Source: Tubiluchus corallicola
Lineage: Eukaryota > Animalia > Priapulida
DNA: 15,757 nt
Assembly: GCA_030141605.1 (NCBI GenBank)
Contig: JAQGDQ010002077.1
Coordinates: 1-15,757 of the forward strand
Direction: 5' to 3'
The position numbers were made by a program, and so were the translations under genes. Position 1 is the first letter of the stretch; every line of letters starts with the position of its first letter. Below are positions 1 to 15,757 of the stretch, in pieces. The notes beneath the pieces are model-generated. The model did not search any database. It had not been told where the DNA came from and was given only the letters and a program-made list of their open reading frames with translations.

Positions 1-1492
1 TAGCCGGAAGCGGAAGTTGCGTATTCCCTGGGACGAAGTCACGTGCAGAAATATTTAAAGTTTGTTCTACCTGGGGTGATTTAAATGCGGCATGGAAGAA
101 CGGCGTAGTTTGTTTAACGCTAGGTTCTAAACCTTCACTGGGAGAATTTTCGAAGAAGGGCTGTACATCAGATAAATAGATATCCCACCATCTACGAAGA
201 AAACCTGATTCATAGTCATCCGAAAAATTGACGTTTACATATTCAGTATAATCCCAGGGCTTCTTTCGGCCTAAAAAGTGCGCAACTTTAATCTTGCTAC
301 TGAACTGCTTCATTGCAGGAAGGTAACCGTAACGACCTTGGACGGCAGCATTATACACAAAAGGTAGGCGCTTGTCAAACTGTAAACTCCAGTTCGGAAA
401 GGCTAAATTTAATAACCCCTGATCACCGCCATCGAATGAACAGGCCTCAGTTTGTGATAGTGACATCAATCTACTGTAAGTTTCCAAATTAGGCTGAAAT
501 ACAAACATTCCAGAATTAAAACAATCAGGCCACCCCACATCTGGGGCAGCCGCAAGCTCATCATAATTGAATAACTCATCAATATTATCTAATACTAAAG
601 TATCAGCATCTAAGTAAACGCACTTTGTAAACTGTGTCATAGCCCAGCAGTGCAATTTCGAGAATGTTACATTTAGCTCTGGCCTACCTAGCAAATGCAA
701 GTTATCAAAATCACTACTCTTTAATAAATCAATCATTTGTACATAATCAAAAACATTACTAAGCTCTGCCATAACTCTGATAGAAACAGTATGGGTGACC
801 AAAATTGCTAGATGTCGAGTTGTACCAGTTCGACGCAAACTGTGTGCCAAGACAAGAGCTCCCTTAGCATAACTGTCGTTCGTTGCCATGGTGAGATAGG
901 CCTCCATAGACGTATGATGAACTGCAGGCTTGGTGTCTGATGACTGGGCTTTGGTGACGTCACGCACTCCTTGAAGCCAATCGGTAACCTTGTCCTTGGT
1001 TGACATGGGTTTCCTAGCTAAAGTCTCGTCTTTGATTTCAGGCGAGGTGACGGTTGTACGCGACTTCTGACTGGTTGCACTGCTATGTGGAGTAACTTCA
1101 CTCTCAAGTCTTAACTGTTTTAACTTCATTGCTTTTAATTTCAGCTCCTGTTCCTGAATCTTAATCTCATGCAACTTTAATTCCCTGGCACTTTTCTTCG
1201 ACCGTCTCGTAGATTTCGAATGACTAGCACCTGAAGATGCTTTGGAAGGGCTGCGCTCGCCAACTTGATGCTGCGCTGTCGCTGTAGCTGCGTCAGCATA
1301 CGACGACGTACCAGACGCTTCACATGACGTCACATTATATGAATGATCTGGTTTCTGCTGACTTGCTAAGAGTCTGTGAATTAGCTCTTCTTTACTACCA
1401 GAAACTGACAGTTGTTTGGCCCGCAGCATTTCTCGCAGCTGATCACGGGTCGTATTTTTTAATTTCTCCCTTGTTGTTTGGTCCGACATCAT
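1..1492 (-). CDS. SAP-domain / coiled-coil / glycogenin (GT8) fusion ORF, 3'-partial; probable retrotransposon gag-like ORF carrying a glycogenin domain
   Basis: Manual translation from ATG at 1492 (in-frame TAA immediately upstream) is open with no stop to the window edge. It reads MMSDQTTREKLKNTTRDQLREMLRAKQLSVSGSKEELIHRLL...SKASSGASHSKSTRRSKKSARELKLHEIKIQEQELKLKAMKLKQLRLESE...KDKVTDWLQG...MEAYLTMATNDSYAKGALVLAHSL...QTLNISARDFVPGNTQLPLPA. There are no introns. Confidence 0.93.
   Translation of the reverse strand, partial: MMSDQTTREKLKNTTRDQLREMLRAKQLSVSGSKEELIHRLLASQQKPDHSYNVTSCEASGTSSYADAATATAQHQVGERSPSKASSGASHSKSTRRSKKSARELKLHEIKIQEQELKLKAMKLKQLRLESEVTPHSSATSQKSRTTVTSPEIKDETLARKPMSTKDKVTDWLQGVRDVTKAQSSDTKPAVHHTSMEAYLTMATNDSYAKGALVLAHSLRRTGTTRHLAILVTHTVSIRVMAELSNVFDYVQMIDLLKSSDFDNLHLLGRPELNVTFSKLHCWAMTQFTKCVYLDADTLVLDNIDELFNYDELAAAPDVGWPDCFNSGMFVFQPNLETYSRLMSLSQTEACSFDGGDQGLLNLAFPNWSLQFDKRLPFVYNAAVQGRYGYLPAMKQFSSKIKVAHFLGRKKPWDYTEYVNVNFSDDYESGFLRRWWDIYLSDVQPFFENSPSEGLEPSVKQTTPFFHAAFKSPQVEQTLNISARDFVPGNTQLPLPA
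158..907 (-). other. GYG: Glycogenin catalytic domain (glycosyltransferase family 8) within the fusion ORF
   Basis: Collinear glycogenin motifs: AYLTMATNDSYAKGALVLAHSL, RPELNVTFSKLHCW, KCVYLDADTLVLDNIDELF (DxD at 610-602), AAPDVGWPDCFNSGMFVFQP, SFDGGDQGLLN, LPFVYNAAVQGRYGYLPA (acceptor-Tyr equivalent at 331-329), HFLGRKKPW and FLRRWWDIY. These match the known animal glycogenin-1 sequence motif for motif. Confidence 0.96.
1367..1462 (-). other. SAP (helix-extension-helix) nucleic-acid-binding domain at the N-terminus of the fusion ORF
   Basis: LKNTTRDQLREMLRAKQLSVSGSKEELIHRLL fits the SAP consensus Lxx(L/T)xxxLrxxLrxrgLxxsGxKxeLixRL. Confidence 0.85.
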
Positions 1493-2827: not shown

Positions 2828-2972
2828 ACATATTATATTAAAGAAAATCCCTTCAACTGGAATGAATCACTCGACGTGGATACTGCCGTAGCGAGTGTTA
2901 CTATCAGTGAACGTTCAAATCTAACCAACGCTACATTCGAAAAACCATTTGAAATTGTTCTCCAAGTTAAAG
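2828..2972 (+). CDS. Polycystin-1-like GAIN/GPS receptor, exon A (internal; gene continues upstream)
   Basis: Acceptor tttcag|ACA, donor AAAG|gtactt, phase 0 to 1. Encodes TYYIKENPFNWNESLDVDTAVASVTISERSNLTNATFEKPFEIVLQVK. The NPFxW...V.S....P..I pattern is typical of the PKD1-like GAIN region. Confidence 0.82.
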
Positions 2973-3163
2973 GTACTTGTAAGACACAGGTATTATTTAG
3001 TAAACCAGAAGCTAACACTACATTTAAAAACCATTTGAATTGTTCTCCAAGGTAAAGGTACTTGTAAGACACAGTTATTATTTGGTAAACCAGAAGCTAA
3101 CACTACGTTTAAAAACCATATGAAATTGTTCACCAAGTTAAAGGTACTTGTAAGACACAGGTA
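2927..3163 (+). repeat. Tandem repeat, ~85-87-bp unit, ~2.7 copies, spanning the exon A 3' end and its donor
   Basis: aac(g/a)ctac...aaaaaccatttgaaattgttctccaagttaaag|gtacttgtaagacacag recurs at 2927, 3014 and 3099 with a few substitutions and indels. Confidence 0.92.
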
Positions 3164-3292: not shown

Positions 3293-3441
3293 ACATAGAT
3301 GTGGCAAGTGTGGATACTCACGTACTGAGGACAACTGGAAACTTAACAGACAGAGAAATAACTTCGCAATCATTTGCTGTTAAAGCTAACTCACTTGTTC
3401 AACTGTTGTTTGATCAATTGCCAGTCGCTCTCATGCTAAAG
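3293..3441 (+). CDS. Polycystin-1-like receptor, exon B
   Basis: Acceptor ccattag|AC (an alternative same-phase AG lies at 3297-3298), donor AAG|gtaaag, phase 1 to 0, matching both neighbours. Encodes (D)IDVASVDTHVLRTTGNLTDREITSQSFAVKANSLVQLLFDQLPVALMLK. Confidence 0.78.
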
Positions 3442-4544
3442 GTAAAGAGCTATACTAACTCACTTGTTCAGCTGTTGTTTGATCAATTGCCAGTCGCTCT
3501 CATGCTAAAGGTAAAGAGCTATACTAACTCACTTGTTCAACTGTTGTTTGATCAATTGCCAGTCGCTCTCATGCTAAAGGTAAAGAGCTATACTAACTCA
3601 CTTGTTCAACTGTTGTTTGATCAATTGCCAGTCGCTCTCATGCTAAAGGTAAAGAGCTATACTAACTCACTTGTTCAACTGCTGTTTGATCAATTGCCAG
3701 TCGCTCTCATGCTAAAGGTAAAGAGCTATACTAACTCACTTGTTCAGCTGTTGTTTGATCAATTGCCAGTTGCTCTCATGCTAAAGGTAAAGAGCTATAC
3801 TAACTCACTTGTTCAACTGTTGTTTGATCAATTGCCAGTCGCTCTCATGCTAAAGGTAAAGAGCTATACTAACTCACTTGTTCAACTGTCGTTTGATCAA
3901 TTGCCAGTCGCTCTCATGCTAAAGGTAAAGAGCTATACTAACTCACTTGTTCAACTGTTGTTTGATCAATTGCCAGTCGCTCTCATGCTAAAGGTAAGTT
4001 TTGTTTGTGTTTGTTTGTGTTTGTGGTGGTTTTTTGTTTGTGTTTTTGGTGTTTAAAGGTAAAGAGCTATACTAACTCACTTGTTCAACTGTGTTTGATC
4101 AATTGAGCGCTCTCATGCTAAAGGTAGAGCTATATAACTCACTTGTTCAACTGTTGTTTGATCTGCCAGTCGCTCTCATGCTAAAGGTAAAGAGCTATAC
4201 TAACTCACTTGTTCAACTGTTGTTTGATCAATTGCCAGTCGCTCTCATGCTAAAGGTAAAGAGCTATACTAACTCACTTGTTCAGCTGTTGTTTGATCAA
4301 TTGCCAGTCGCTCTCATGCTAAAGGTAAAGAGCTATACTAACTCACTTGTTCAACTGTTGTTTGATCAATTGCCAGTCGCTCTCATGCTAAAGGTAAAGA
4401 GCTATACTAACTCACTTGTTCAACTGTTGTTTGATCAATTGCCAGTCGCTCTCATGCTAAAGGTAAAGAGCTATACTAACTCACTTGTTCAACTGTTGTT
4501 TGATCAATTGCCAGTTGCTCTCTTGCTAAAGGTAAAGTGCTATA
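3386..4544 (+). repeat. 69-bp tandem array (~16 copies) made of the exon B 3' end, its donor and 13 nt of intron
   Basis: Unit ctaactcacttgttcaactgttgtttgatcaattgccagtcgctctcatgctaaag|gtaaagagctata. About 9 copies, then a GT-rich interruption (3998-4053), then about 7 copies. Confidence 0.97.
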
Positions 4545-5560: not shown

Positions 5561-6452
5561 GCCGTTTTCAAAAAAAGTGGTCGGCCAACCGTTGACGATT
5601 TTAATGCAGATGCAAAAAATGTGCACAAAATTGGACTTATACAAGGCAACCAATCAGATGGTTTAACAGCCACTAACATCTTGAGCATCTACAATAGGGG
5701 AAATCTTGCTGTTAGATACCACGTTGGTATAATGTTTCACTCTTACCACGTTCCAACGTGTTACAAAGCTTGCCAAGACGACGTTGCGAACTGTACAAAA
5801 GAGTATGAAAAAAACTGCGGTCACACTAACACAGAAAAAGAATCGTGTGAACGCAATAAAACCAGCGTCTGCAACGTGCGCAACTGCATGCAAGAACAAC
5901 TCTGTTATCAATCCTGGATGGACCAGTGTAAGAATGTAGCATCGGACTGTCGCAAACAGACCAGACCATGTTACAACCTGCTGGAAAGATGTAATAATTA
6001 CGACCACAATTGCCAGATCTCTTGTCTAGGAGAACGCGCATGCGTGGACAACTGCTTAGAAAAGTATATTGTGTGTATTAGTGAAAGTGACGTCATTTGT
6101 AAGCCGGCTAAGGAGTGCATCAAAAACTCGGACATTGGTTGTACAGATGCGATGGCTATTTTGACCGAACAAACATGTAAACACTTGTACATTGACTGCA
6201 GCCGACATCATACCCAAGACTGTGAGATGGGCTATTTGTCTTGTAAAAAGTCGTGTCCCAAGTCTACTGAGGTTGAATGCTTGTCAGTTTGCCAGCAGAA
6301 GTTAACTTCCTGTACATCTACAATACCTGAGCAGTGTAAAAATAGAACTTTGCTGTTGAATTTTGATTGTGGTGACGTTAACCCCACCTGGCAAAACGTT
6401 TCAGAGGAAAAGGAAATACGTGATGAGGAGACGGAAACTCAAATGTCTTCAG
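5561..6452 (+). CDS. Polycystin-1-like receptor, exon C (GAIN-region strands plus Cys-rich module)
   Basis: Acceptor atttctag|GCC, donor TCAG|gtacgc, phase 0 to 1, 892 nt open (overlaps track ORF 5621-6499). Begins AVFKKSGRPTVDDFN (PTxxD[FY] motif) and includes VRYHVGIM, followed by 30 Cys in ~205 aa. Confidence 0.88.
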
Positions 6453-6542
6453 GTACGCAAGTGTCCATATTATGTCATGTCATAATCCCTATCATTTAGG
6501 TTTCTTGTATAAGTATATTGCGTTGTAATATACTACATTTTA

Positions 6543-7068
6543 CTGTATTGTGTTGTGTTGTGTTGTGTTGGATTGGATTGGATTGGATTGGATTGTGTTG
6601 AGTTGTGTTGTGTTGTGTTGTGTTGTGTTGTGTTGTGTTGTGTTGTGTTGTGTTGTGTTGTGTTGTGTTGTGTTGTGTTGTGTTATGTTATGTTTGTTAT
6701 GTTGTTTGTTTGTTTGTTTGTTGTTTGTTTGTTTGTTATGTTATGTTTGTTTGTTGGGTTGGGTTGGGTTGGTTGTGTTGTGTGTTGTGTTGTGTTGTAT
6801 TGTATTGTATTGTATTGTATTGTATTGTATTGTATTGTATTGTATTGTATTGTATTGTATTGTATTGTATTGTATTGTATTGTATTGTATTGTATTGTAT
6901 TGTATTGTATTGTTTTGTATTGTAGTGTATTGTAGTGTAGTGTAGTGTAGTGTAGTGTAGTGTAGTGTAGTGTAGTGTAGTGTAGTGTAGTGTAGTGTAG
7001 TGTAGTGTAGTGTATTGTATTGTATTGTATTGTATTGTATTGTATTGTATTGTATTGTATTGTATTGT
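6543..7068. repeat. Compound pentanucleotide microsatellite (TGTGT / TGGAT / TGTAT / TGTAG, with TTTG patches)
   Basis: Directly visible. It accounts for track ORFs 6550-6945, 6555-6935, 6605-6925 and 6741-7118. Confidence 0.98.
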
Positions 7069-7341
7069 AACAGTGTACTATACTTTCTTAGGAAACCTCG
7101 CTGAGTTTCTTTTAACAATTTTATAATTGTGGTTTGAAGAAACCAAAAAACTTGAAATTTAGTTTTAAGATTTTATTCTCAAGTGTCTACATAAACAGTG
7201 AAGTAGTGTCATGTTGAAAAGCAGAAAACCAAGTGACCAAAAGTACAGGTGAAATCATTTAGGTGTGAAAACAGATTTAGAGATTATGCATTCATAAAGA
7301 CTGTAGAAGCCAATGAAAATTTAAACAGCAAAGAGATAGAT

Positions 7342-7588
7342 TTAACAATTTTAACAAGAACACCTGAAGGTGGCAGCACTATCCAAAACTCAAAAATGTA
7401 TGATGACAATACAACATAAATTTAAATTTAGAATTTCTTCTGTCCAGTTTCTACAATTATAGTATTTGTTAGTGGGCCATTTCTTGTGGAACACCCCGTA
7501 CTTAACATTTACAAGAACACCTGAAGGTGGTAGCACTATCCGAAACTAAAAAAGTATGATGACAATACAACATAAATTTAAATTTAGA
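7342..7588 (+). repeat. Direct repeat pair of ~85-90 bp (7342-7432 and 7502-7588)
   Basis: acaagaacacctgaaggtgg(c/t)agcactatcc(a/g)aaact...gtatgatgacaatacaacataaatttaaatttaga occurs twice, separated by ~70 bp. Confidence 0.9.
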
Positions 7589-7909
7589 GTAATTAAAATG
7601 ATTTTCCTTTGTCAAATTGTTTTTTTCATTTTTGCATGTTGAACGACCCATAAAGTGAAAAATAATATAGAGGCCTACTTATGCGCAAAATGAAAAATTC
7701 CTAAAGAGCATCATTAGATCGTTTTAAAAGCAGAGATTTCTGACCTGCTTTGACATCTCTTCTACCATCGAAAGCGAGATGTCAGCATTAATGCAGGAAG
7801 TTGAGCAATTCAGTCCCAAATTATTTTTTAATAAGGAAAAATTTTTGGCTTGGTACTTTGTTTACACATAATAATTTTTTTTCTACCTGTGCTCGCGCGC
7901 TAAATATAG

Positions 7910-8246
7910 CCTGTATCCCACGGGATACATTAGGATTCAATAGAAGCATAAAATGTGCTTCATTTTGCAAATGCTGATAATTTTTTAAAGTATTTAAGAC
8001 ATTTAGTATGCATGCTATACTAATCTGTACAATGTCGTATCTAAAGTACTGTACCTTGCACAGTTTTTTATGCTATGTAGAATTTCTAGTTTGCCATTTT
8101 ATCACCATTTTTTAGTCTATTGTTATTGGCTTAAATCAAAATAACTATTAACAGATCAAATAACTGTCAGTCTTAAAATTTTATTAATTTTAAAGGCAGA
8201 AAGCATTCTCGTATCCCACGGGATACAACGGGTATGAAAGGGTTAA
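7910..8246. mobile_element. Probable right end of a piggyBac-like non-autonomous element (left boundary not determined)
   Basis: Ends ...ggtatgaaaggg|ttaa, i.e. a CCC terminus plus TTAA. The subterminal near-palindrome gtatcccacgggatac occurs at ~7914 and ~8211. No matching left terminus was found. Confidence 0.45.
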
Positions 8247-8359
8247 CAGCTAGCAGTAATTTATTCATCCAGTAATTTGGTCTACCTTTGCAAATATGCA
8301 GAAGTTGTTTAAGTTTCACTGATCGTTGCTGTGGTAAAATATTTCGTGTCCATTTGTAG

Positions 8360-8507
8360 AAAACGTGGTTTATTATCTTGCCATGCAAACAGCTGACGTA
8401 AAGAACGCAGGAACAAGTGCAAGCGTCTCTGTCCAGATTCATGGTAGTCATGGTGATTCAGATGAGATGCTACTATACAGTAACCTTGCAAGTTTTGCTC
8501 GCCAAAA
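8360..8507 (+). CDS. Polycystin-1-like receptor, exon D (PLAT/LH2 domain, N-terminal part)
   Basis: Acceptor tttgtag|AA, donor AA|gtaaga, phase 1 to 2. Encodes (E)NVVYYLAMQTADVKNAGTSASVSVQIHGSHGDSDEMLLYSNLASFARQ(K), the PLAT signature YxxxxxTxxxxxAGTxAxVxxxxxGxxG. Confidence 0.9.
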
Positions 8508-8649
8508 GTAAGATAATTATTCTTAAGCCACGCTTTCCTATTCAGTAAATTAATATGCTCTTGTATGAAATATACTGAAACATATTAAAACATAAATGTT
8601 GTTGTGTCACATGAAAACTCAATCTAGTGATTTTATACAATAGGTATAC

Positions 8650-9123
8650 CAGGGGTGTGCAAATTGCGGCCCGCCGAGAGAATTTGTGTGGCCCGCGAAA
8701 AGATGTGTCAACCTAATGAAAGTACGGCCGGGGCGATTAATTGAGTGTATCCAGCTGAAGTCCGTGCCAAAGATTGTGCGGGTAGTTTTTTCTACTAGAT
8801 CGGATGCCATTAACCCTTACAAGACGGTTGTAGCTTAATGTCAGTGTACTACACAGACTGTGTTATACACATTACTAATATGCATTGTAATGAAATTACC
8901 ACTATCTGTCCCGAAAGTAGAAATATGTGGTTTGTAATATAAATTCTAATAACTTCTAAAATAGTTTCTTGAGTGTAGTTGTAATGACGTACGCAGGTCG
9001 GATGCAAAAAAATCGTTATTAGGCCTTTCTGTACTTGGCTCCTTGACCAAACTGCCTGTGGCCCACAGGAATTGCGGGAAAGTTTAATGTGGCCCGGCTA
9101 GTCAGATAATTTGCTCACCCCTG
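8650..9123. mobile_element. Non-autonomous hAT (Charlie-like) DNA transposon / MITE, 474 bp
   Basis: TIRs caggggtgtgcaaatt ... aatttgctcacccctg with one mismatch. Perfect 8-bp TSD aggtatac at 8642-8649 and 9124-9131. Subterminal (c/t)ggccc motifs at both ends. Confidence 0.95.
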
Positions 9124-9344
9124 AGGTATACCTAAAGAAAAACTTTCGAATGTCAAGGCGCACCGGTAATGCTGGTAACCCATAGATAAGTTTAACGTTT
9201 GTACAAATTGAGATTCAGATAAGATGATAGTAAAGAGTAATCTCGCAAGTTTTAGTCGTAACGGGTAAATTTTTCTACTAAAGCAAACTGTTAGTTCCAG
9301 AAAATATAAACTGCATATCACGAGCTTGGATATTTTTTATGTAG

Positions 9345-9447
9345 ATTGGATTGGTTTAATTTAACAATGCCATCTGTAGGAAATGTCAGGTTTCTTAGTC
9401 TATGGCATGATAACAAAGGCCTTGGTCCAGCATGGCTACTAGAAAAG
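9345..9447 (+). CDS. Polycystin-1-like receptor, exon E (PLAT/LH2 domain, middle part)
   Basis: Acceptor ttatgtag|A, donor AAG|gtacat, phase 2 to 0. Encodes LDWFNLTMPSVGNVRFLSLWHDNKGLGPAWLLEK, the PLAT signature DxF...G.....WHDNxGxxPxWxL. Confidence 0.92.
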
Positions 9448-9952
9448 GTACATTGTAACTTTTAGTTTATTAGCAGCAAGTAATAGTTAATTTCTGTAGT
9501 TTATTTGATATGTCTTGACTGATGCAGCTGTTTACTTCCTGCTGAGTGTTTCTTTGTACATCTGCTATGCCACCTATGCTATACTATGCTTTCTTTGCTA
9601 TGCCACCTGTTTTTTTCTGTTAGCTTGTCAAATGTTTGTGTAATGTATGCGCTCAAACCAAAGTTGCGTTCCCATATCTATGTTAGTTTATTCTGGAAAA
9701 TACAAATTTTCTGTAGTCTAGAATTACTACCTCTACAAAACTACCAAAATAAGTGCTAGAAAATAAGTGCTACAGATTACTACGTTACACTAAAAAGCTA
9801 AAATGCATACATACATTGTTGGTCCAATATTGAGTCGAGAAAAAGCCAGAATGTCAGTAAAAGGTAGCAGTATAATTATAAGTCAAATTTTAAATGTAAC
9901 AGAGACGTGTGTACATAACAAGTTCCACCTATACAATGTCAGAGTAGAAAAA

Positions 9953-10990
9953 GTAGTCTAGCTTGTTGAACTACAGTCTAATATATTGTGGCTTCTAATG
10001 CATATACTACCTTGAGAAAGGGTAGTCTAGCTTGTTGAACTACAGTCTAATATATTGTGGCTTCTAATGCATATACTACCTTGGGAAGGGGTAGTCTAGC
10101 TTGTTGAACTACAGTCTAATATATTGTGGCTTCTAATGCATATACTACCTTGGGAAGGGGTAGTCTAGCTTGTTGAACTACAGTCTAATATATTGTGGCT
10201 TCTAATGCATATACTACCTTGGGAAGGGGTAGTCTAGCTTGTTGAACTGCAGTCTAATATATTGTGGCTTCTAATGCATATACTACCTTGAGAAGGGGTA
10301 GTCTAGCTTGTTGAACTACAGTCTAATATATTGTGGCTTCTAATGCATATACTACCTTGAGAAGGGGTAGTCTAGCTTGTTGAACTACAGTCTAATATAT
10401 TGTGGCTTCTAATGCATATACTACCTTGAGAAGGGGTAGTCTAGCTTGTTGAACTACAGTCTAATATATTGTGGCTTCTAATGCATATACTACCTTGAGA
10501 AGGGGTAGTCTAGCTTGTTGAACTACAGTCTAATATATTGTGGCTTCTAATGCATATACTACCTTGAGAAAGGGTAGTCTAGCTTGTTGAACTACAGTCT
10601 AATATATTGTGGCTTCTAATGCATATACTACCTTGGGAAGGGGTAGTCTAGCTTGTTGAACTACAGTCTAATATATTGTGGCTTCTAATGCATATACTAC
10701 CTTGGGAAGGGGTAGTCTAGCTTGTTGAACTACAGTCTAATATATTGTGGCTTCTAATGCATATACTACCTTGAGAAGGGGTAGTCTAGCTTGTTGAACT
10801 GCAGTCTAATATATTGTGGCTTCTAATGCATATACAACCTTGAGAAGGGGTAGTCTAGCTTTTTGAACTACAGTCTAATATATTGTGGCTTCTAATGCAT
10901 ATACTACCTTGAGAAGGGGTAGTCTAGCTTGTTGAACTACAGTCTAATATATTGTGGCTTCTAATGCATATACTACCTTGAGAAGGGGTA
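9953..10990. repeat. 69-bp intronic minisatellite, ~15 near-identical copies
   Basis: Unit gtagtctagcttgttgaactacagtctaatatattgtggcttctaatgcatatactaccttg(a/g)gaa(a/g)gg, with starts at 9953, 10022, 10091 and onward. Stops occur in the frames examined and there are no spacers. Confidence 0.98.
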
Positions 10991-11197
10991 ATGCACAGCA
11001 TAAATTTTTTACAATACCGCTGTAAAGAAATTTCAAGGGGCGATGATAACCGCCATTCACGCGAGAATTATGATCGTGCGTGACATGTGCTCAATACAAC
11101 TCCAACAGTCTTTTAGATGTAATTTATAATTTTTTATTGTCCAAAATGAGCAGTCATCGTCTCATCCCAAAATCACTATCACATCATGACATACTTG

Positions 11198-11219
11198 ACT
11201 GACTGACTGACTGACTGAC
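11198..11219. repeat. (GACT)n microsatellite
   Basis: gactgactgactgactgactgac. Confidence 0.9.
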
Positions 11220-11666
11220 ATATTATGTGCGACTCGACTTCGTTTTATCTGAAGCAAATAAAAACATTTTCTGCTAATCCAATGTCAAAAGGATAATTAA
11301 CAGCTATAATGAAAATGTATAATAATATTACGAAATATGAAGAAATCAAACTTAGATCTTTGCCGCATCTTACTAACTTGCTAAAGAGAACTCGACTGAC
11401 AAAGTGACACAACGTACTGAACAAGAATGACTTCTTTCCTATCCCATCTGCAAAATGAGGCCAATGGCCCATTTCCTGTCCTAGCTCACCTGTCTATCAA
11501 CAGCCTAAATTTGCAAAAAACAAACACAAGGAGGCACCACGTGGTTAAATCCAAAACAGTGGTGTAACAGATGGACTTTTTGTAATCACATCATGACTTC
11601 ACATAAGCGTGCTGTACTCAAGTCTTTGTCCTTTCAATTTGCAATCCTGATACCTGTTTTCTTCAG

Positions 11667-12114
11667 TGTTGATACATTTGTGAAAGTCATGTTTGAGGTT
11701 GTAGATGAATCACTTTGTATAAAAGAATAAACAACTATACTACATATTTGCACAAAACTGAAAAGTGTTTATTAGACCACATACACATATGTAGAATGAC
11801 TGCTGCACTGAACACTGAGAACAAGAGTGTCCTGCGCTGATCACTGAGAGTTAGACAGAATGAGGATCACGACTGCTGCCCTGCACTGAGAGTGTGAGTT
11901 AGACAGTGACTAGAAAGTAAATCCAGTCAGTATATATAGGTATAGGTGATTATGCAAACTTGGCTTCACAAAAACCATTACTGTAAAATAGGAAGAGAAT
12001 ATGCATTCACTGGACCGTACAATTATACTAGGGGTGAGTTTAGCTAGTAAAATGTAAAAGGATTAGTTCATAGATGGCAGCACCTAAAAATATACAGTTA
12101 CAATTTCCACAACA
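11667..12114 (-). mobile_element. Candidate solo LTR, 448 bp
   Basis: Termini TGTTG...CAACA. Flanks ttcag / ttctg form a 5-bp TSD with one mismatch. Minus-strand AATAAA at 11773-11768. Homologous to 1945-2488. It ends ~30 nt upstream of exon F. Confidence 0.68.
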
Positions 12115-12143
12115 TTCTGATACATTTTAATGCTTTTGTAAAG

Positions 12144-12264
12144 GTTCTTATATATTTCGAGCATTTGGAATTCACGTGTCCTTGCATGACATGGCTGGAA
12201 GGCAACTCATCAGTGAACAGACAGAAATTTCCGTGCTTTCTCTTTGCTAACTTCACACCACCAG
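12144..12264 (+). CDS. Polycystin-1-like receptor, exon F (PLAT/LH2 domain, C-terminal part and linker)
   Basis: Acceptor ttttgtaaag|GTT, donor CCAG|gtaaag, phase 0 to 1. Encodes VLIYFEHLEFTCPCMTWLEGNSSVNRQKFPCFLFANFTPP, continuing PLAT (V.I......PCxxWL). This is the only open frame. Confidence 0.85.
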
Positions 12265-13338
12265 GTAAAGTAGTTACATAGCATTATAAAGATTGTGTAC
12301 ATATAGAAATTTACTGTAGATTGGGTCTACTAAATAGTCCTTATTGTGACTGTAGTGTAGTACAGAGTCCTGAACTAATAATATAATTTAATATAATATA
12401 TCAAGGACCAAAAAACTGGAATGAGATTTGTCAATCCGCAAAAAATAGCAGATCTATTACTAGATTTAAAAAAATGCTAAAAAATCAAATTTTAAGTAAG
12501 TATCAGTGAGTTATCAAAACTTCTATCAGTATCCATCCTCACAGTAGTGGCAAAACAGTGGTGTTAGCTTAATCAAGTTATTTTATTTTTATAAATACTA
12601 TTAACAAATAATAGTCCTTCTATCTTTTATATCATCCCATATATGAGCTTCATTCATTACATCATTCCATTTTAAACACTAATGTTTTCTTATCACACGA
12701 TTCACCTTAAATTTTCATATTATTTCCATTTTTTCTATCACTGTGTGGGACAATCTAACAAGCCCTGCTTTTTGATTGCCCGCAACACATTTACCTTCGT
12801 ATATAGGTGAACAGTGTTTGAGGCTTTTCCTGTGCAGTATTTCTTATTTGTATTATATCCATTGTAGGCCCTTTCACTAGATATTGTACATGGAACTATT
12901 GTAAATGTGTAATGTGAAGTAAATGAGTTATGACTTATGAGCACTTGTTGTTTGGTTGCATTTTTGTTGACGATGAAAAAGGCTAAGGAATTTGAATTGA
13001 GATAATAAATTATGTTCAAGTGTGTTGCATGAAAGAGACAGAAAAGTTACTGAGTCAATAATTACTTTTATTTGTTTTAATCAAAGATGATAACTGTTAA
13101 GTTAAATTAAACCGTATTATAGTAAAATGAAGATTTGTCATAATTTTGTATAGTAAAATAAAGAAGTACTCCAAATTGAAGTCTCTATAAGTCTGCGATA
13201 AGTGACATAAAACAACGTATGTAGGTTCTGGAATGAAGTTTCATACCGTTTATTATTTTTCATTTCGCTGATAATTTAGACTCCACAGCGCTCTCTGTAT
13301 GTTATGATATTATAAAGTAGAATAATAACGGGTTTTTT

Positions 13339-13363
13339 ATCATCATCATCATCATCATCATCA
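13339..13363. repeat. (ATC)n microsatellite
   Basis: About 8 ATC units. Confidence 0.9.
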
Positions 13364-13728
13364 ATGTATTATGTACACCAGTACTACTTAGACATTTTTG
13401 GTATGTTCTAATCAACAGGTAGTATACAGCAACAATTGGCTAACAACTTGAATATCATGGTAATTAGTTTTATTATACACCTCTTCATACTCAAAGTATT
13501 TTTTTAGTCTTTTTAGCATTGTAATCTACATCGTATGCTTCATTTACCCTAAGTACAAATTGTTCAAGTTTTTCAACTTTCTTTGTTTTTGTCGGAATTT
13601 CTTTTAGTTGCATTTAAGTTCTTCTGTTAATTTCTTATCTGGTGTTATCAAAATATTTAGTGAACCCTTATAATAAAAAGTCTTTGTTACACTTGATTAT
13701 GAAGGATGAAAATTTTAAAATATTTCAG

Positions 13729-13832
13729 CTCCACCTCAGATATCACGAGTCAATTTTTCCATCCGTTTCTATTCCACTCAGTGTGTCTACTGGGATGAAC
13801 ATTTGGAGAAATGGTCTGATAAGGGATGTAAG
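13729..13832 (+). CDS. Polycystin-1-like receptor, exon G (first half of the GPS motif)
   Basis: Acceptor atttcag|CT, donor AAG|gtaaat, phase 1 to 0. Encodes (A)PPQISRVNFSIRFYSTQCVYWDEHLEKWSDKGCK, matching the GPS consensus CxYWxxxxxxWSxxGC preceded by the PKD1L-type VN[YF]S strand. Confidence 0.92.
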
Positions 13833-15257
13833 GTAAATTCCTAATTATCTTAATAATGATGAATGTCAGTGTGTATACTGGGATGAACATTTGGAGAAAT
13901 GGTCTGATAAGGGATGTAGGGTAAATTCCTAATGTCTTAATAATGATGAATGTCAGTGTGTATACTGGGATGAACATTTGGAGAAATGGTCTGATAAGGG
14001 ATGTAGGGTAAATTCCTAATGTCTTAATAATGATGGATGTCAGTGTGTATACTGGGATGAACATTTGGAGAAGTGGTCTGATAAGGGATGTAAGGTAAAT
14101 TCCTGATGTCTTAATAATGATGGATGTCAGTGTGTATACTGGGATGAACATTTGGAGAAGTGGTCTGATAAGGGATGTAAGGTAAATTCCTAATGTCTTA
14201 ATAATGATGGATGTCAGTGTGTATACTGGGATGAACATTTGGAGAAATGGTCTGATAAGGGATGTAAGGTAAATTCCTAATTATCTTAATAATGATGAAT
14301 GTCAGTGTGTATACTGGTATGAACATTTGGAGGAATGGTCTGATAAGGGATGTAAGGTAAATTCCTGATGTCTTAATAATAATGGATGTCAGTGTGTATA
14401 CTGGGATGAACATTTGGAGAAATGGTCTGATAAGGGATGTAGGGTAAATTCCTAAAGTCTTAATAATAATGGATGTCAGTGTGTATACTGGGATGAACAT
14501 TTGGAGATATGGTCTGATAAGGGATGTAAGGTAAATTCCTGATGTCTTAATAATAATGGATGTCAGTGTGTATACTGGGATGAACATTTGGAGATATGGT
14601 CTGATAAGGGATGTAAGGTAAATTCCTGATGTCTTAATAATAATGGATGTCAGTGTGTATACTGGGATGAACATTTGGAGATATGGTCTGATAAGGGATG
14701 TAAGGTAAATTCCTGATGTCTTAATAATGATGGATGTCAGTGTGTATACTGGGATGAACATTTGGAGAAGTGGTCTGATAAGGGATGTAAGGTAAATTCC
14801 TGATGTCTTAATAATGATGGATGTCAGTGTGTATACTGGGATGAACATTTGGAGAAATGGTCTGATAAGGGATGTAAGGTAAATTCATAATGTCTTAATA
14901 ATGATGGATGTCAGTGTGTATACTGGGATGAACATTTGGAGAGATGGTCTGATAGGGGATGTAAGGTAAATTCCTGATGTCTTAATAATGATGAATGTCA
15001 GTGTGTATACTGGGATGAACATTTGGAGAAATGGTCTGATAAGGGATGTAAGGTAAATTCATAATGTCTTAATAATGATGGATGTCAGTGTGTATACTGG
15101 GATGAACATTTGGAGAAATGGTCTGATAAGGGATGTAAGGTAAATTCATAATGTCTTAATAATGATGGATGTCAGTGTGTATACTGGGATGAACATTTGG
15201 AGAAATGGTCTGATAAGGGATGTAAGGTAAATTCATAATGTCTTAATAATGATGAAT
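13778..15257 (+). repeat. 87-bp tandem array (~17 copies) made of the GPS exon 3' end, its donor and intron start
   Basis: Unit tcagtgtgtatactgggatgaacatttggagaaatggtctgataagggatgtaag|gtaaattcctaatgtcttaataatgatggatg. The first copy lies inside exon G. Confidence 0.98.
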
Positions 15258-15757
15258 TTACCCTACATCCCTTATCAGACCATTTCTCCAAATGTTCATC
15301 CTAGTATACACACTGACATTCATCATTATTAAGACACTAGGAATTTACCTTACATCCCTTATCAGACCACTTCTCCAAATGTTCATCATAGTATACACAC
15401 TGACATCCATCATTATTAAGACATTATGAATTTACCCTACATCCCTTATCAGACCATTTCTCCAAATGTTCATCCCAGTACACACACTGACATCCATCAT
15501 TATTAAGACATCAGGAATTTACCTTACATCCCTTATCAGACCATATCTCCAAATGTTCATCCCAGTATACACACTGACATCCATTATTATTAAGACATCA
15601 GGAATTTACCTTACATCCCTTATCAGACCATATCTCCAAATGTTCATCCCAGTATACACACTGACATCCATTATTATTAAGACTTTAGGAATTTACCCTA
15701 CATCCCTTATCAGACCATTTCTCCAAATGTTCATCCCAGTATACACACTGACATCCA
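15252..15757 (-). repeat. Same 87-bp array in inverted orientation (~5.8 copies, runs off the window)
   Basis: gaatttacc(c/t)tacatcccttatcagacca...actgacatccatcattattaagac is the reverse complement of the unit. The junction shares atgaat (15252-15257). Confidence 0.97.

Follow-up and report, generated by a model that had tools for sequence, protein, structure and literature searches.

The window considered here, by which we mean the whole of contig JAQGDQ010002077.1 of the priapulid Tubiluchus corallicola, is 15,757 nucleotides (nt) long, with a G+C content of ~36% and zero N. Its plus strand carries seven putative exons, labeled A to G, of which exons D, E and F encode a PLAT domain, with the opening half of a GPS motif following in exon G. 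The order of these elements, PLAT exons and then a GPS-half exon, is confirmed as a real arrangement of the DNA. The candidate exons are listed below with their entry and exit phases, with intron letters in lower case and a slash at each splice boundary.

2828-2972, plus strand: exon A, phase 0 to 1; acceptor tttcag, donor AAAG/gtactt
3293-3441, plus strand: exon B, 149 nt, phase 1 to 0; acceptor cattag/AC, donor CTAAAG/gtaaag
5561-6452, plus strand: exon C in its long form, 892 nt, phase 0 to 1; a second phase-1 donor lies at 5726/gtataa
8360-8507, plus strand: exon D, phase 1 to 2; tttgtag/AAAACG ... CCAAAA/gtaaga; first third of the PLAT domain
9345-9447, plus strand: exon E, phase 2 to 0; tttatgtag/ATTGGA ... 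GAAAAG/gtacat; middle of the PLAT domain, with WHDNKGLGPAW
12144-12264, plus strand: exon F, phase 0 to 1; ttgtaaag/GTTCTT ... CACCAG/gtaaag; last third of the PLAT domain
13729-13832, plus strand: exon G, phase 1 to 0; atatttcag/CTCCAC ... TGTAAG/gtaaat; the GPS motif's first half, preceded by a beta-strand-like stretch

Exons A to G are stop-free, have AG/GT boundaries and are mutually compatible in phase. Together they total 1662 nt, which reproduces the join of 554 amino acids (aa) proposed in an earlier note on this DNA. The limits given in that note, 8360 and 13832, coincide with the first base of exon D and the last base of exon G. That note also held that exons D to F splice in the compatible phases 1/2/0/1 and form a block that is phase 1-1 symmetric. 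Both points are borne out by the splice sites, which can be read directly, and by the exon lengths (148 + 103 + 121 = 372 nt). When the long form of exon C is joined to exons D, E, F and G, the product is 456 aa with zero stops.

The PLAT, GPS and cysteine-rich exons

Three independent comparisons agree with the earlier proposal that exons D to F yield a complete PLAT domain. First, the Pfam PLAT profile (PF01477) matches exon D over profile positions 5-45 (E = 0.0056) and exon E over positions 52-84 (E = 0.023), and the two matches are colinear. Each exon alone scores below the Pfam cut-off of 23 bits, in a test that took the exons separately and not as a spliced product. Second, a PDB search matches exon E to the human polycystin-1 PLAT domain (6a70_B, E = 1e-5), with the WHDNKGL-PAW stretch as part of the match, and the best PDB match of exon D is the PLAT domain of a coral lipoxygenase (E = 0.017). 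Third, a computed join of exons E and F aligns unbroken to the uninterrupted PLAT open reading frame (ORF) of a metagenome contig, L001, at 33% over 90 aa, and this alignment extends through the C-terminal strands. Exon F alone has no Pfam or PDB match. Judged by these similarities, exons D, E and F together constitute one complete PLAT domain of ~124 codons, in a family whose domain is ~115 residues long.

Our Pfam run covered stop-to-stop ORFs of at least 28 aa, comprising 114 of 161 on the plus strand and 104 of 150 on the minus strand (218 of 311 in total), with ORFs inside a TGTAT microsatellite and inside an 87-bp array omitted. On this basis the window holds only one PLAT domain, and PLAT matches come solely from the exon D and exon E ORFs. 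The start of exon C was considered as a second PLAT domain after a four-sequence search in which it weakly resembled a PLAT N-terminus (17.3 bits, E = 0.06-0.35), and this candidate was dropped because there is no Pfam signal.

Contig L001 is the one confirmed relative among 159 candidate stretches in a metagenome scan, and its relevant part is as follows.

1-1318 of L001, no strand assigned: multi-PLAT gene fragment, carrying two or more PLAT domains in tandem and introns of ~50-60 nt

The PLAT unit of L001, which belongs to an unrelated gene, begins in phase 1, and its first strand follows within a few residues. Like the PLAT block of the window, it is interrupted by a phase-2 intron at the same residue of an F-x-x-x-[K/Q] stretch and by a phase-0 intron after W-[FL]-L-[DE]-K, and it too has a phase-1 end, which in L001 comes after T-P. 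Because these intron positions and phases match, we take exons D to F to be a genuine genomic PLAT module of the shuffling kind. The block likewise fits a shuffled phase 1-1 module at its insertion point, where the host intron would be in phase 1 on both sides. HDNKGLGPAW is also present in L001, and this sequence alone is thus no marker of a polycystin-type PLAT domain. Two loci in bacterial metagenome-assembled genomes, which emerged from a scan of genome contigs, were rejected as spurious; they matched ORF residues 3-31 and 6-24 only, which for the most part precede exon E and miss the PLAT signature.

Exon G scores 25.7 bits against the Pfam GPS profile, above the gathering score of 22.5 bits, over profile positions 2-25 of 45. 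It carries C-x2-W ... W-x3-G-C, the first half of the GPS motif, after a beta-strand-like stretch. The CVYW...WS..GC pattern singled out in the earlier note is therefore a GPS match for the first half only. The best PDB matches of exon G are to GPS regions of adhesion G-protein-coupled receptors (GPCRs), and these are weak (E = 0.33-1.4). The second half of the GPS motif, the first transmembrane (TM) segment (TM1) and anything downstream would fall past the 87-bp array and the end of the window.

Three observations bear directly on the order of PLAT and GPS. The PLAT exons precede the GPS exon in the DNA, the phases fit, and no hydrophobic segment lies between the two. Specifically, the best 19-residue Kyte-Doolittle mean in the 456-aa join is 0.8, far under that of a TM helix, such that the model indeed lacks a TM segment between PLAT and GPS, as had been claimed. 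Hydrophobic, in-phase and stop-free candidate exons in the intron between exons C and D are all products of a (TGTAT)n microsatellite, and those in the intron between exons F and G comprise three weak sites, one of which is inside a high-copy repeat. The microsatellite, we noted separately, imitates TM helices in hydropathy scans. The sequons NLT, NSS, NFT and NFS, previously cited in favor of an extracellular position, are present in the join where they had been placed, but they are weak as evidence, given that three occur in ~124 residues when about one would be estimated by chance.

Upstream of the PLAT block, exon A is a beta-strand-like, GAIN-like stretch with no Pfam or PDB match. Exon C lies in a 312-codon stop-to-stop frame with its stop at 6497-6499, and the exon itself is open for 297 codons; it is the length of this open frame that leads us to regard exon C as coding. 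Its first 55 aa end in a YHVG stretch, and these are followed by 30 cysteines and four sequons (NCT, NKT, NRT and NVS) in a module without known kin.

5727-6452, plus strand: orphan module with 30 cysteines, ~240 aa long and sharing the frame of exon C

An extracellular setting fits exon C, on account of its 30 cysteines, its four sequons and its in-frame, TM-less join to exon D. A HMMER search with the 312-aa ORF returned 0 matches in 1.84 billion representative proteins, and exon C gave no Pfam match, nothing useful in the PDB and no usable protein atlas match. AlphaFold likewise produced no confident fold for this ORF, with a mean predicted local distance difference test score of 42. Word-index protein searches recovered no homologue for this ORF or for the ORFs of exons E and G.

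Repeat arrays, assembly and gene surroundings

The window is crowded with minisatellites, microsatellites and dispersed high-copy repeats, several of which touch the candidate exons. Read depth in the list refers to contigs from sequencing run X1, and a strand is given where one was assigned.

2927-3163: 85-bp tandem array, 2.8 copies, starting inside exon A and including the exon A donor
3386-4544: 69-bp tandem array, 17 copies, starting inside exon B; each unit spans 23 codons, with an open frame of 263 aa
5069-5321, plus strand: (TCA)n tracts that translate into long runs of His, Ile or Ser
6544-7069, plus strand: (TGTAT)n microsatellite, 526 bp; none of the three plus frames has a stop, and all read as Cys/Val/Leu strings
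7788-8257, 8634-9197, 11679-12163 and 12358-12939: dispersed repeats with a summed X1 contig depth of 1,000-35,000
8634-9197: dispersed high-copy repeat in the intron between exons D and E, X1 depth 6,700-35,000 compared to 3.5-7 over neighboring exons
9953-10990: 69-bp tandem array, 15 copies, inside the intron between exons E and F
13778-15254: 87-bp tandem array, 17 copies, unit 1 of which combines the 3′ portion of exon G with the beginning of the following intron
15254-15757: inverted 87-bp units, at least 5.8 copies, forming a fold-back that runs off the end of the window

The cysteine and tryptophan codons of the GPS motif in exon G belong to unit 1 of the 87-bp array, and every unit keeps the arrangement cag/51 nt/gtaaat, which amounts to a 51-nt in-frame pseudo-exon. 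We reject the splicing of these pseudo-exons, which would presumably leave introns of 36 nt compared to 0.3-2.7 kb elsewhere in the gene. In three of the seven exons (A, B and G), the 3′ end and its donor have been amplified into arrays, a coincidence for which our rough chance estimate is ~5 in 10,000. We know of no mechanism for such exon-junction amplification.

Run X1 behaves as low-depth DNA, and its contigs offer a comparison with the assembled sequence. Exons D to G have an X1 depth of 3.5-15 (~7 for exon D) versus 100-35,000 for the intronic repeats. A 451-nt X1 contig spans exon E, and its three differences are all upstream of the exon; another of 319 nt covers exon F with 0 differences. 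No terminal inverted or direct repeats were found flanking the PLAT block. The single-copy-like depth and this lack of flanking repeats rule out the idea that the PLAT exons are cargo of a multicopy element. Separately, X1 contigs that skip 12370-13104 and 8674-9095 hint at polymorphic insertions or at recombination between repeats, with short sides at the joints (36 and 28 nt).

With so many arrays, the PLAT-before-GPS order might itself be an artefact of assembly, in which the arrays at 6544-7069, at 9953-10990 and from 13778 onward have joined segments that are not neighbors. Arrays do separate exon C from exons D and E, exons D and E from exon F, and exon G from whatever lies beyond, and the X1 contigs are too short to bridge them. 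Moreover, at its end the window repeats the 87-bp array in inverted orientation, which is typical of fold-back or chimeric reads. However, the decisive junction is the one between exons F and G, and this 1.46-kb gap is free of arrays; we therefore conclude that the junction does not cross a suspect assembly join. The phases also fit at every putative join, and X1 contigs show 0-3 differences from the assembled PLAT exons and flanking sequence. Given these observations, we consider a misassembled order very improbable.

Aside from PLAT (exons D and E) and GPS (exon G), the only relevant Pfam matches in the window come from a single minus-strand ORF.

2-1492, minus strand: ORF of 497 codons, uninterrupted, starting with MM at 1492 and running off the start of the window

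In this ORF Pfam recognizes a SAP motif at the N-terminus (E = 2e-4) as well as a domain of glycosyltransferase family 8 (E = 7.6e-19), and by eye the ORF looks like glycogenin. It begins 1.3 kb upstream of exon A on the opposite strand, in either a head-to-head or a nested arrangement. None of the ORFs scanned has a Pfam match to a REJ, TM, PKD-channel or other receptor domain.

These surroundings invite a second explanation, wherein the window would hold a young partial duplicate or a decaying fragment of a GAIN/GPS receptor together with a stray PLAT domain, perhaps transcribed but giving no working receptor. The window offers exon A no partner upstream, the opposite-strand glycogenin-like gene begins at 1492, and the ORF scan lacks REJ, TM and channel matches. 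In addition, three exon ends have grown into minisatellites, the second half of the GPS motif is not in the window, and the cysteine-rich part of exon C has no relatives among the 1.84 billion representative proteins. Against this, the seven exons maintain 554 codons without a stop or a frameshift, including one exon of 297 codons, and by our own arithmetic ~250 random codons would be open by chance at this composition with a probability of only ~1e-8. Furthermore, additional upstream and downstream exons may simply fall beyond the 15.7-kb window. On balance, a duplicate or decaying fragment seems to us quite unlikely.

Splicing alternatives and the favored reading

Reading frames alone do not dictate that the PLAT exons are used. 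The open, in-phase joins comprise 456 aa (long exon C, D-F and G), 214 aa (short exon C, D-F and G), 332 aa (long exon C and G) and 90 aa (short exon C and G). A third explanation is thus that the PLAT block is a DNA insertion in a phase-1 intron that is mostly skipped, in which case the product would run from exon C to exon G without PLAT, and any canonical PLAT domain would come after TM1. The joins of 90 aa and 332 aa, both open and in phase, speak for this explanation. It would also respect the canonical family order, which places PLAT after TM1, and it is in keeping with the other local duplications of exon pieces at the locus. On the other hand, exons D to F have open frames, acceptors rich in polypyrimidine and sound donors (gtaaga, gtacat and gtaaag), they show no signs of decay, and the phases of the block match those of the host intron. 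We regard predominant skipping of the PLAT block as unlikely.

The explanation we favor, tentatively and with slightly less than even confidence, is that splicing includes exons D to F as a phase 1-1 cassette, so that a PLAT domain, preceded by the orphan cysteine-rich module, would lie outside the cell near the predicted autoproteolysis site of a GAIN/GPS receptor. If this is correct, the exons would be joined in the mRNA as their DNA suggests, exons A to C would supply strands of GAIN subdomain B, and the PLAT block would be a PLAT repeat unit that was shuffled, at the DNA level, into an intron of phase 1. The encoded protein would then be PKD1/REJ-like, with approximately a dozen residues between the end of PLAT and the strand leading into the GPS motif. 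In other proteins PLAT is a beta-sandwich that attaches to membranes and partner proteins, and by analogy this one might bind lipids or partners outside the cell, next to the region of the tethered agonist. Its target could be the outer leaflet or another protein, and such binding could in turn affect the N-terminal fragment or how far the tethered agonist is exposed. The interpretation in the earlier note is partly supported, and a PLAT-before-GPS architecture, which would be new if true, is plausible but unproven.

Several features of the window weigh against the use of this cassette in an intact receptor. First, a product lacking PLAT, with exons D to F skipped and either exon C donor used, is equally readable from the DNA. 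Second, only half of the GPS motif is present, and no C-x-C-x-H-L-T/S sequence occurs in the six frames of the window. Third, no Pfam or PDB match ties exons A to C to a GAIN domain, and the closeness of the YHVGI and VNFSIRF strands put forward in the earlier note likewise finds no support there. Fourth, the PLAT domain of exons D to F holds three cysteines, an odd count for an extracellular domain. Fifth, the PKD1L label appears not to be supported, being founded solely on a PLAT domain and half a GPS motif, and exon G seems closer, albeit weakly, to adhesion GPCRs. Sixth, a relative with the same architecture was not found, by searches that could not have revealed one. Seventh, run X2, which we guessed to be RNA, contains nothing matching 7130-9940.

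The remaining difficulties concern the locus itself. The exon-junction arrays at exons A, B and G mean that this locus is unstable and prone to duplicating pieces of exons. The flip of the 87-bp array at 15254 may be either a palindromic satellite or an assembly fold-back, and the 3′ end is poorly resolved. Finally, either the glycogenin-like gene is nested within an intron of the receptor gene, or the receptor gene is a 5′-truncated fragment.

A more elaborate form of the favored reading would treat part of exon C as an insertion too. The gene would specify a polycystin/REJ-type receptor with two insertions, the 30-cysteine module and a PLAT domain of the polycystin/LOXHD1 type, both in the last hairpin before the cleavage motif and with PLAT on the outside. 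Two phase-1 donors combined with one cassette would then permit four in-frame variants of the ectodomain. We view this fuller proposal as possible, though somewhat doubtful.

In polycystin-1 proteins, the PLAT domain counts as a constant marker of the cytoplasmic side after TM1, with roles in membrane and partner binding and in trafficking. If the cassette is indeed used as we propose, then PLAT would be a domain that can be redeployed by exon shuffling, and the gene would allow one to ask how autoproteolysis and tethered-agonist exposure respond to insertions in GAIN subdomain B. It would also serve as a caution against reading topology from the presence of a domain alone. If the exons are instead skipped, the window would present a domain module that goes unused within an intron, in a gene with an unusual tendency to form repeats.

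Comparison with known systems

The order within the polycystin-1 family is REJ, GPS, TM1 and PLAT, and PLAT 'is always found intracellularly' according to one source (PMC1934368). A coral REJ protein has the same domain order as the polycystin-1 family (PMC4890752). Both sources agree with the earlier note in taking GPS, TM1 and intracellular PLAT as the canonical order. The window shares with PKD1, PKD1L1-3, PKDREJ and sea-urchin SpREJ the presence of GPS and PLAT in one gene. Its PLAT exons, in contrast, lie upstream of the GPS exon with no TM segment between, whereas the family's PLAT domain follows TM1 in the cytoplasm. Family members also have a complete GPS motif with an HL-T/S cleavage site inside a GAIN domain, and eleven TM helices with a C-terminal half resembling a polycystin channel. 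The family's REJ, TM and channel parts were also not seen in the window ORFs scanned. A literature search did not find PLAT before GPS described, nor the phrase 'extracellular PLAT', which is weak evidence because domain-architecture databases were not queried and the protein searches came back empty.

With the adhesion GPCRs ADGRF1 and ADGRG6, exon G shares the C-x2-W ... W-x3-G-C pattern after a beta-strand-like stretch, at the E values of 0.33-1.4 given above. In contrast to these receptors, whose GAIN domain precedes a class-B seven-transmembrane domain, the window has no seven-transmembrane match in the scanned ORFs and no HL-T/S site in its six frames. To our knowledge, there is no adhesion GPCR with a PLAT domain inside its GAIN domain.

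Extracellular PLAT domains are present in pancreatic and lipoprotein lipases and in clostridial alpha-toxin, where they bind lipid surfaces or partner proteins, which means that the PLAT beta-sandwich is able to function extracellularly. These domains belong to enzymes and not to GAIN/GPS receptors, and no sequence link between them and the window was found.

A further likeness is to multi-PLAT genes such as the one on L001, whose family name we presume to be 'LOXHD1-like'. The L001 gene and the window have the same four intron positions and phases, a phase 1-1 unit and HDNKGLGPAW. Instead of a tandem array, however, the window has a single PLAT domain, flanked by non-PLAT exons and a GPS exon.

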